A stretch of 64,000 nucleotides of DNA, taken from assembly GCA_963771045.1 (NCBI GenBank), contig CAVYRW010000004.1:672001-736000 (forward strand), given 5' to 3'. The position numbers and the translations under genes were made by a program. Source of the DNA: Waddliaceae bacterium (GTDB taxonomy: Bacteria; Chlamydiota; Chlamydiia; Chlamydiales; SLFE01). Numbering within the stretch: position 1 is the stretch's first letter; every line of letters starts with the position of its first letter. The notes beneath the pieces were generated by a model that was not told the origin of the DNA, made no database searches, and was given only the letters and a program-made list of their open reading frames with translations. Positions 30,712 to 32,389 of this stretch are shown piece after piece.

Positions 30712-30793
30712 GATCCTCACAACTTTCCGGCTTTGTTGCGTAATTAACCACAGAGCTCACAAGAGCGCACAGAGAGAATATGAGAGATTTGAT

Positions 30794-31738
30794 TTAAGCT
30801 GCTATTAATTCACTTTCAGGCATTCCCAGCTTTGTCATTATATTTAGTGCTTCACATTTTGCCCTTGATTCAGCCCTTTGGGTTTCCAGAGTTCTACTTC
30901 TTAAATCATTTCCAAAGAATCGTTTAAATCTAAACATGGCTGTTTCTGCAAGTGATCGGCGATGATAACCTTTCAACTTTTTCCATAATTTTCTTGCATC
31001 ATCATCACCTCCTAAACCTGAAATTTCCAGCAAACTGATATTCCGCATCTTCCAAGAAGGAGATATGTTTTCTCGAAAAACAGCATTCCTATTGGGTGGA
31101 ATAATAGGAATTGAGCCGTGAACTACATTTGCAGCATAGCATCGCTTAGTATCATAAGCCCCATCTCCATATGTGCGCTTAACTGATTTCGGCATTACCT
31201 CGAGAAGTTTTGGATACACTTCACAATCTGCAACGTTATTTTCAGTAAGAATTTCGAAAATAATTTCGTGAGAGTCAGGGCAGACTGCCAGATGGAGCTT
31301 TCTCCATGTTCGTCTTTTACTGATTCCATGCTGCCTAACTTTCCATTCACCCTCTCCGTACACTTTCAAACCGGTTGAATCGATTACAATATTGGTGACT
31401 TTTTTTTTCGAAAGTTTCTTCAACTCTTGCCCCAACAACTTAGCTCTCCGACAAATTTGAGTATAAGAAGGAATCGATAAACCAACAGATAAAATCATAA
31501 CAAGAGATGTCAAAAATCCTTCGAGTGCTCTCAATGGAAGATGAAAAACCGATCGAATAATGAGCGCGGTGAGAATAGCGTCATCAGAATAGAGTTTTGG
31601 ACGCCCCTTTTTTCCTATTTCTTTTGGAGCCATCCACTTATTGATAGCATCTTCAGAAAACCAAACAGTTATGCTTCCCCTTTGAATAAGAGATTTGTTA
31701 TAGTCGTTCCAGTTGCGAATGCGATATTTTGCCTTCAT
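30794..31738 (-). CDS. IS903-group DDE transposase (intact)
   Basis: NWNDYNKSLIQRGSITVW, IDSTGLKVYGEGEW, WRKLHL, GDGAYD, GYHRRSLAETAM. Confidence 0.95.
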   Translation of the reverse strand: MKAKYRIRNWNDYNKSLIQRGSITVWFSEDAINKWMAPKEIGKKGRPKLYSDDAILTALIIRSVFHLPLRALEGFLTSLVMILSVGLSIPSYTQICRRAKLLGQELKKLSKKKVTNIVIDSTGLKVYGEGEWKVRQHGISKRRTWRKLHLAVCPDSHEIIFEILTENNVADCEVYPKLLEVMPKSVKRTYGDGAYDTKRCYAANVVHGSIPIIPPNRNAVFRENISPSWKMRNISLLEISGLGGDDDARKLWKKLKGYHRRSLAETAMFRFKRFFGNDLRSRTLETQRAESRAKCEALNIMTKLGMPESELIAA

Positions 31739-31822
31739 CTTGATCCTCCAATTTGTTGCAACTAAAAATTAGAGTATTAGGTATTTGTCGGCAAGCTCGC
31801 ATTCGCCCTTTTTGGAGAAAAG

Positions 31823-32230
31823 ATGACTAGTACCCACACAACTGAAGAAGCCAACCAAAAAAGAAATGACCTTTTAACAGGGGAAATCATAGGTGCTGCG
31901 ATTGAAGTTCATCGAAGATTAGGTCCAGGCTTGCTTGAATCGACATACGAAACTTGTCTTTGCTACGAGTTGAACCTTGCGGGTTTGAAAGTTAACCGGC
32001 AGATACCAGTACCTATTATTTATCGTGATAAAAAGCTAGACTCAGGCTACCGGATCGATATGATAGTGGAAGATAAGGTTATTTTGGAGATAAAATCTGT
32101 GGCCAATTTCTTGCCTGTTCATGAGGCCCAACTTCTATCCTATCTTAAGCATAATGGTGGTGGCAGAGGTTTGCTCATCAATTTCAATGTAAAACTTCTA
32201 AAAAATGGGATTAGGCGTCTAATCATTTAA
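31823..32230 (+). CDS. GxxExxY protein (PD-(D/E)XK nuclease-like)
   Basis: EVHRRLGPGLLESTY, YRIDMIVEDKVILEIK, AQLLSYLK, GLLINF; GGAG RBS. Confidence 0.93.
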   Translation: MTSTHTTEEANQKRNDLLTGEIIGAAIEVHRRLGPGLLESTYETCLCYELNLAGLKVNRQIPVPIIYRDKKLDSGYRIDMIVEDKVILEIKSVANFLPVHEAQLLSYLKHNGGGRGLLINFNVKLLKNGIRRLII

Positions 32231-32389
32231 TTCCTCTCTCATAATCTCTCAGTGAGCTCGGTGGTCTCAGTGGTGATTTATGCAACAACGCCCAACTTTC
32301 CCTGTGTTGTACGCAGGGGTAATAAAATCTTTATAAATTATTAATAATCTCAATATATAATTTATTTTAACTAACTAAAATTATAATGT

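Follow-up and report, generated by a model that had tools for sequence, protein, structure and literature searches.

A two-layered IS903-group element of a Waddliaceae bacterium with inner terminal arrays of GxxExxY type

Structure of the element, its genes and its copies

The stretch of DNA analysed here (the window; 64,000 nucleotides of a Waddliaceae bacterium, assembly GCA_963771045.1, contig CAVYRW010000004.1, positions 672,001 to 736,000) contains at 30729..32292 a 1564-bp mobile element, an insertion sequence (IS) of the IS903 group (IS5 family) that carries a GxxExxY gene. Two divergent open reading frames (ORFs) lie between its ends, a 314-aa IS903-group DDE transposase on the minus strand (30794..31738) and a 135-aa GxxExxY protein with a predicted PD-(D/E)XK fold on the plus strand (31823..32230), separated by an 84-bp intergenic region (31739..31822) with no array beside the GxxExxY start. 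The target duplication of this copy, CAACTTTCC, is found at 30720..30728 and 32293..32301. Judged by their sequence, the ends are two-layered, each with an outer 18-bp IS903-type tip and an inner GxxExxY-type array.

The left tip (30729..30746, plus strand; transposase 3' side) and the right tip (32275..32292, minus strand; GxxExxY side) start with GGC and are identical at 14/18 and 16/18 positions, respectively, to the IS903 ends annotated in phage P7; the left one, which coincides with the exact boundary of 16 copies (see below), is a likely transposase binding and cleavage end. Each tip is followed by an inward-reading array consisting of AC and three ~9-bp CAC-N(1-2)-GAG units, CACAGAGCT, CACAAGAGCG and CACAGAGAG on the left (30747..30776, plus strand; units at 30749-30776) and, read inward, CACTGAGAC, CACCGAGCT and CACTGAGAG on the right (32246..32274, minus strand; units at 32272-32246). 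In word and build the left array matches the arrays flanking stand-alone GxxExxY genes, and the right array has the position of their downstream array. Through a purine-rich tail common to both ends (30777..30787, plus strand; 32235..32245, minus strand), the inverted repeat (IR) comes as close as 6 bp to the stop codon of the transposase. When 30729-30787 was globally aligned to the reverse complement of 32235-32292, 47 of the 59 columns matched and one gap was needed, and a repeat search of the window returned the same inverted arms. An earlier note on this DNA, made from the letters alone, had reported the same degree of matching and the same three units per end, and both were reproduced. 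It had also called the IR unusually long, which by itself does not make it unique, as two GxxExxY-less IS903 relatives (L126 and L127) have differently built IRs of ~41–44 bp, that of L126 enclosing a second, inverted tip-like copy. The IS903-like character that it had assigned to the ends is borne out for the tips, but is limited to those outer 18 bp.

The 2.57-Mb genome contains 16 full-length copies, 99.7–100% identical and all with the same start and stop bases, 12 of which have a perfect 9-bp target duplication. Contigs of public runs containing the element, which are soil and salt-marsh metagenomes, likewise break at 30729 and 32292, and an artefact or a chance repeat is thus ruled out. 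All 18 GxxExxY matches in the genome lie within this element (the 16 copies and two halves of one split copy), indicating that the passenger moves with it. Other related sequences are i) a divergent copy (G000:C4:1701314-1704285; L018, L019) with a 9-bp duplication and a GxxExxY gene interrupted by an IS256, a mosaic that is ~78% identical over the first 1223 bp and 100% over the last 349 bp, ii) an internally deleted derivative retaining both arrays (G000:C2:86178-86495), iii) a transposase-only fragment without ends (G000:C4:997659-998663), and iv) a worn left-end remnant (G000:C1:38398-38546). Only 5 of the 39 array matches in the genome had no adjacent tip core, two of these being the ends of a deleted derivative; genome-wide dispersal of the kind known for repetitive extragenic palindromic (REP) sequences was therefore not seen here.

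The element shares the transposase family, the GGC-TTGTTG tips and the 9-bp duplication with the IS903 group (IS903 of phage P7; ISPam1, ISPko1, ISPpa8 and others tabulated in PMC3281130). Members of the group measure ~1050 bp, and the IRs in that table are 15–27 bp long, whereas this element has 1564 bp, a second, divergent gene and a 59-bp IR with inner arrays. Since its length and two ORFs depart from the single-ORF ~1050-bp format, it can be regarded as a passenger-carrying form of the group, i.e. a transporter IS (tIS). The tIS described in the relevant part of PMC7986276 likewise hold a non-transposase gene between IS ends; here, in contrast, the passenger appears to bring its own repeats as the inner layer of both termini, and the layout is found on more than one transposase lineage.

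The transposase matched NF033579 (289 bits; cut-off 140), PF13737 and PF01609 in profile searches and is 44% identical to the IS903 Tnp of phage P7 over 99% of its length. By eye, the intergenic region retains a promoter-like TTGC(C/T)-n17-TAA(A/T)TT found upstream of the transposase in GxxExxY-less relatives, and the GxxExxY start occupies the place of their left tip; a sigma-70 scan did not call the promoter-like stretch in 31739..31822. A second TTGTTGC tip-core word, absent in most relatives, is present at 31752-31761, ~15–25 bp upstream of the transposase start. The transposase stop codon is 68 nt from the tip, similar to the ~50–90 nt in relatives, suggesting that the array replaced the old 3' untranslated region (UTR).

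The GxxExxY protein matched TIGR04256 (147 bits) and PF13366 (141 bits), with G36-E39-Y42 as the GxxExxY motif, and its putative catalytic or conserved residues are all intact; over 109 aligned rows D79 and K91 are conserved in 109, E39 and E89 in 108, Y107 in 107 and Q103 in 106. As modelled by AlphaFold2 (predicted local distance difference test score, 94), the protein has a restriction-like PD-(D/E)XK fold. A wide structural search returned SwaI (Z 7.7, rmsd 3.2, 114 residues aligned), BpuSI (Z 7.1) and SSO0001 (Z 7.0), and these Z scores below 8 are middling but concordant with the Pfam assignment. Foldseek gave no match at E <0.001, its top rows being Hjc, lambda exonuclease and the Cas4 protein SSO0001. 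No relative with a solved structure was found by a single-sequence search, which returned only RelE at E 0.37–0.79, or by a profile search, which returned 0 hits. A homodimer prediction scored 0.00, which has no bearing for or against a dimer. The PDDEXK_3 family is listed as function-unknown in the family listing of PMC3424549.

Arrays around GxxExxY genes and at IS903 ends

The earlier note had stated that arrays of the CACAGAG type often flank stand-alone GxxExxY genes. We examined the 80 closest GxxExxY loci in GTDB together with the Chlamydiota matches, 128 distinct genes representing the branch of the family nearest to this protein; one Chlamydiota genome was left unscored in the Chlamydiota searches. 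After 24 rows were dropped (14 chimera-type, 1 duplicate, L160, and 8 with short flanks), 104 stand-alone genes were scored, with an array called as an inward-reading cluster of at least two words. Such arrays were found upstream of 81/104 genes and downstream of 80/104, on both sides of 69 and on either side of 92, compared with 2.9% and 1.3% in shuffled flanks and 5/95 in windows 1 kb away. That statement thus holds for the sampled relatives, which make up a single branch of the family. The gene's nearest relatives come from Chlamydiota; among the other hosts are Acidobacteriota, Chloroflexota, Bacteroidota, Planctomycetota, Pseudomonadota and archaea, and a search for GxxExxY on plasmids returned eight records. 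Five Chlamydiota GxxExxY genes (L163, L166, L180, L157 and L177) have no CAC-N-GAG arrays, some of them having other inverted flanks or simple repeats instead.

Among 56 transposase loci, 22 were full length with both tips visible and were counted. None of the 19 GxxExxY-less IS903-group elements had arrays at either end, whereas all three GxxExxY-carrying ones had them at both. Arrays without the gene were seen in internally deleted or truncated derivatives (L125 and MITEs, miniature transposable elements with inverted repeats). A different short form, a 47-bp tip-tip hairpin MITE, occurs without GxxExxY at L133. The possibility that the arrays are a general IS903 feature, which the earlier note had named as the outcome that would overturn its proposal, is ruled out by the 0/19 count, and the enrichment around stand-alone genes points the same way. 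Its view of the element as a chimera of an IS903 and a repeat-bounded GxxExxY cassette agrees with these counts and with the occurrence of the arrays beside stand-alone genes in many phyla. On this comparative sequence evidence, the arrays belong to GxxExxY and not to IS903, and they are likely the DNA sites of the GxxExxY protein itself; the pair may be a functioning system in its own right, as the earlier note had suggested. The element as a whole is, on balance, probably a two-layer IS903 element, in which the tips are used by its own transposase and the arrays, derived from a GxxExxY cassette, are predicted sites of the nuclease.

Over 66 end types the commonest words were CACAGAG (78), CACCGAG (44) and CACTGAG (32), and the commonest unit period was 9, followed by 8. 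Where synonymous sites of the transposase are saturated (proportion of synonymous differences, 0.75–0.81), arrays are retained at both ends, and CAC and GAG stay fixed while the spacers drift; fixed words with free spacers at such divergence fit protein-binding sites. For the 20 of 23 elements that were paired, the two arrays of an element were on average more similar to each other (mean 23.3 of 28) than arrays from separate elements were (17.7 of 28). The same applies to 53 stand-alone cassettes (23.2 within vs 16.5 of 28 between cassettes).

Layout, spread and origins of the fusion

In stand-alone cassettes the arrays adjoin the gene directly. In contrast, the 200 nt upstream of the gene are free of arrays in all 14 chimera-type GxxExxY rows (~9 distinct elements), and the partner array sits behind the transposase stop, 1 kb away. 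As read from these sequences, the fusion did not come about simply by an IS taking up a complete cassette, since the upstream array is gone from the gene side and relocated beyond the transposase. The simplest history would be as follows: i) a cassette would have been inserted in the interval from the left tip to the promoter of the transposase, ii) recombination or gene conversion between the termini would have placed a copy of the gene-side array at the far end, where it took the place of the old 3' UTR, and iii) the inner array would have been lost, leaving the whole IS enclosed by one inverted array pair. GxxExxY and its arrays would then hitch-hike on IS903 transposition. This history is made plausible by recombination between terminal inverted repeats, which is documented in IS elements (in the cases treated in PMC3004938), and by the 41–44-bp IRs of L126 and L127.

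Modules also appear to have been exchanged between elements. Compared with L121, the transposase of this element is 80–97% and GxxExxY 74–79% identical, with synonymous divergences of 0.34 and 0.74, respectively; this inequality, together with the 78%/100% mosaic copy, suggests such exchange. The ratios of nonsynonymous to synonymous divergence for the GxxExxY gene (0.064/1.21 vs L269; 0.085/~3 vs L121) indicate that it is under purifying selection within the chimeras, but L121 carries a stop codon in each gene, which counts against the comparison.

A search for the tip-plus-array pattern returned 29 of 401 Chlamydiota genomes with 10 family codes (0 in the backwards control) and at least 123 stretches in metagenome contigs, which have no taxonomy attached; among the 122 metagenome loci examined, 47 start with an IS903-like tip, in some cases by chance. 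Many of these elements are MITEs of 96–351 bp, and among 20 elements with both ends paired, a 9-bp duplication was present in 6 and an 8-bp one in one. Outside Chlamydiota the fusion was not found in 251 genomes of one other phylum (that of G401; slightly stricter pattern), five single genomes and three viral matches.

The layout lies on two or three groups of transposases, here called lineage A (a clade of 8 chimeric transposases including that of this element), lineage B (L140) and lineage C (L284 type). The trees omitted near-duplicates and short fragments, and that for lineage C three long branches. In a careful transposase tree the 8 proteins of lineage A form a clade (100/100), whereas L140 groups with the GxxExxY-less L129 and L148 (96/91), and all nine chimeric proteins are united in 0% of 200 bootstrap trees. 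The L140 transposase has lost its 5' part and adjoins a TnpB element; its tie to GxxExxY comes from a MITE of the same genome (L314) that has the same left end and a GxxExxY remnant. At L386:3645-5174 (G126), a 509-aa TnpB-family ORF occupies the expected place of the 5' part of the lineage-B transposase. For L284, L326, L255 and L311, which have other array variants, the C-terminal transposase remnants are nearest to a distant GxxExxY-less clade, and the 50-aa remnant of L284 falls inside this third clade (Shimodaira–Hasegawa-like likelihood-ratio support, SH-aLRT, 100). The array variants seen in lineage B and in lineage C are found again in stand-alone cassettes belonging to the same host families. 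Taken together, these sequence data make two or three separate origins of the fusion layout likely, on different Chlamydiota transposase lineages.

A single ancient fusion, after which transposase genes were exchanged among IS903 relatives and the arrays were carried as passive relics renewed by gene conversion, would account for several observations that speak against repeated origin. The approximately unbiased (AU) test does not reject A and B as one clade (p=0.29) or A and C (p=0.052), and the value for A, B and C together (p=0.028) was obtained with a 50-aa fragment in a quickly built LG+G4 tree, the groups having been named once their placement had been seen. Mosaics are common, the fusion was absent from the other phylum searched, and a quick GxxExxY tree (130 columns), in itself compatible with a single origin, unites 8 of the 9 chimeric genes in a clade with an SH-aLRT of 91. 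However, that clade also includes five stand-alone genes, L179 falls outside it, and several chimeric genes are nearest to stand-alone ones, in the case of L179 with the same CACCGAG variant. Fixed CAC and GAG amid drifting spacers at saturated divergence would also be unexpected under passive carriage. We therefore consider a single fusion improbable, the least so favoured of the accounts weighed here, and retain two or three origins as likely.

GxxExxY genes and arrays were also found in other mobile settings. In a Waddliaceae metagenome-assembled genome, an IS630 element present in six near-identical copies (L041-L046) carries an intact array-GxxExxY-array cassette behind its transposase. 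L160 (G255:C2), between hemN and hemG, is a transposase-less tip-array-GxxExxY-array-tip structure with worn tips and a locally duplicated right end. Array-tip-array pile-ups occur at L389 (G167:C4), and a perfect 96-bp tip-array-array-tip palindrome at L392 (G277:C6). All movement seen is attributable to IS903 or IS630 transposases.

Possible function of the arrays and related systems

In the two-layer reading, the outer 18-bp tips would be used by the element's own transposase, and the GxxExxY protein would bind the inner arrays and nick or cut them. Array-directed cutting would promote recombination, by which the arrays would be kept alike and the gene swapped between elements. Since the upstream array was displaced 1 kb beyond a divergent transposase and yet kept, and since neither mRNA of the fusion can contain both arrays, DNA is the likelier level of action on the available sequences.

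The arrays might instead act in RNA, as 3'-end signals (Rho loading or RNase sites for GxxExxY), those of stand-alone genes pairing around the ORF like an rRNA intervening sequence. Both fusion arrays lie directly behind stop codons (6–18 nt), giving pyrimidine-rich CUCNGUG repeats in mRNA, and Rho prefers spaced YC motifs. The downstream arrays at 80/104 stand-alone genes would fit this, and the structural neighbours of the PD-(D/E)XK model include RNA endonucleases (ranks 28, 36 and 39). On the other hand, the fusion genes diverge, so that neither mRNA has both arrays although both are kept and alike; the upstream arrays of stand-alone genes are purine-rich in mRNA; and either end alone, on both strands, folded no better than shuffles (z -0.7 to +0.8, DNA parameters). 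A role in RNA is accordingly unlikely. A self-folding hairpin or an intrinsic terminator at each end was likewise unsupported by the folding and terminator checks. The lone RNA run yielded one contig of 217 nt, which lies within a GxxExxY relative and is silent on the arrays.

Another possibility is that the arrays now serve the transposase, as subterminal sites or a host-factor enhancer, with GxxExxY a passenger of unrelated benefit such as defence or addiction. The arrays are placed symmetrically right inside both tips, MITEs retain tip and array together, and the tip-to-array offset peaks at 20 bp (22/66 end types) and 29–30 bp (16/66), about one helical turn apart. However, these peaks are confounded with lineage and all intermediate offsets occur, the sister transposases of both lineage B and lineage C function on bare tips, and the word variants go with the host family's GxxExxY cassettes and not with the transposase. 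As for a defence function, GxxExxY gave weak Cas4 profile matches (E 0.014), but no PADLOC defence model was matched at E <0.001. This account seems to us to have a small chance, somewhat below that of a role in RNA.

Several observations also weigh against the arrays being nuclease sites that act as proposed in the two-layer reading. There was no inward array on either side of 12/104 stand-alone genes, and outward-reading clusters were present in 13 and 22 genes. The two arrays of the window element score 18.5 of 28 against each other, no better than a third of foreign ends, suggesting that homogenisation has not been recent here. In different genomes, several Acidobacteriota cassettes (L051, L059, L090 and L102) share their upstream sequence, a pattern suggestive of long vertical inheritance rather than active mobility. 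None of the loci retrieved showed an intermediate combining three arrays with a full transposase, and all 16 copies moved as ordinary IS903 insertions. A broader proposal goes beyond the two-layer reading: GxxExxY with its inverted arrays may form an undescribed, phylum-spanning class of selfish nuclease-repeat units that apply PD-(D/E)XK chemistry to tandem, non-palindromic words, invade ISs and rebuild their termini, cutting at the arrays leading to an array copy at the far end and thereby to a whole IS903 as cargo, and this repeatedly in Chlamydiota, yielding a two-enzyme transposon with two-layer ends whose nuclease would act on both ends and modulate or defend the element. We put this forward tentatively, as an idea that is doubtful on present sequences.

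Two further described systems invite comparison, and the gene with its arrays would at most work in their manner. RAYT proteins (REP-associated tyrosine transposases) act by HUH chemistry on palindromic REPs, whereas here the fold is restriction-like and the arrays are not dispersed in this genome. The likeness to this IS200/IS605-type system, as summarised in PMC11893778, lies in an enzyme gene that has inverted short repeats on both sides, repeats that are found in the absence of the gene as well. Membership among REPIN/RAYT systems was rejected, as neither ORF matched a Y1 profile and the arrays are not palindromic. The Ssn nucleases with NTS/SRM repeats, in the portion of PMC11893778 devoted to them, resemble GxxExxY in being small single-domain nuclease genes with cognate repeats on both sides across phyla, with repeats on both sides in 42% of cases vs 69/104 for GxxExxY. 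Ssn is a GIY-YIG protein (cd10448) whose repeat is a self-folding hairpin shown to be cut as single-stranded DNA (PMC11893778), whereas GxxExxY is of the PD-(D/E)XK type and its putative sites are non-palindromic tandem words that do not fold by themselves. The ORFs matched only PF13366 and TIGR04256 for GxxExxY and the ends fold no better than shuffles, and membership in the Ssn/SRM class was rejected as well. The "tandem inverted repeats" in the relevant text of PMC10907252 are MITE-like IS ends unrelated to the arrays. Literature searches returned no description of the arrays or the fusion; they covered subscription papers thinly and had ISfinder outside their reach, so that an IS with this passenger may already have been named.

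The arrays provide a concrete candidate substrate for the widespread PDDEXK_3/GxxExxY family. The element is a compact and recently active test system, with tips, arrays, transposase and nuclease separable within 1.56 kb, and the fusion amounts to a natural experiment in which an upstream array was moved 1 kb across a divergent transcript and still kept. If cutting proves true, the system would be i) a PD-(D/E)XK counterpart to Ssn/SRM and RAYT/REP, ii) a possible source of small sequence-specific nucleases, and iii) an example of one mobile unit remodelling the ends of another.

On its left, the element is preceded by an IS4-family element (29511-30712; NF033591, 26-bp IR) that ends 16 bp away; this IS has ~6 full copies and one split copy in the genome and also adjoins the divergent chimeric copy. 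Farther left, ORFs at 24118-27553 (minus strand), behind a TamA/Omp85 gene (27556-29430), resemble one long gene in pieces. To the right lies a 329-aa ORF (32390-33379) in low-GC DNA with no Pfam or NCBIfam match, and two genes at 37380-38371 and 38376-38903 also look frameshifted. These broken ORFs, like those at 24118-27553, look like pseudogenes or assembly errors.

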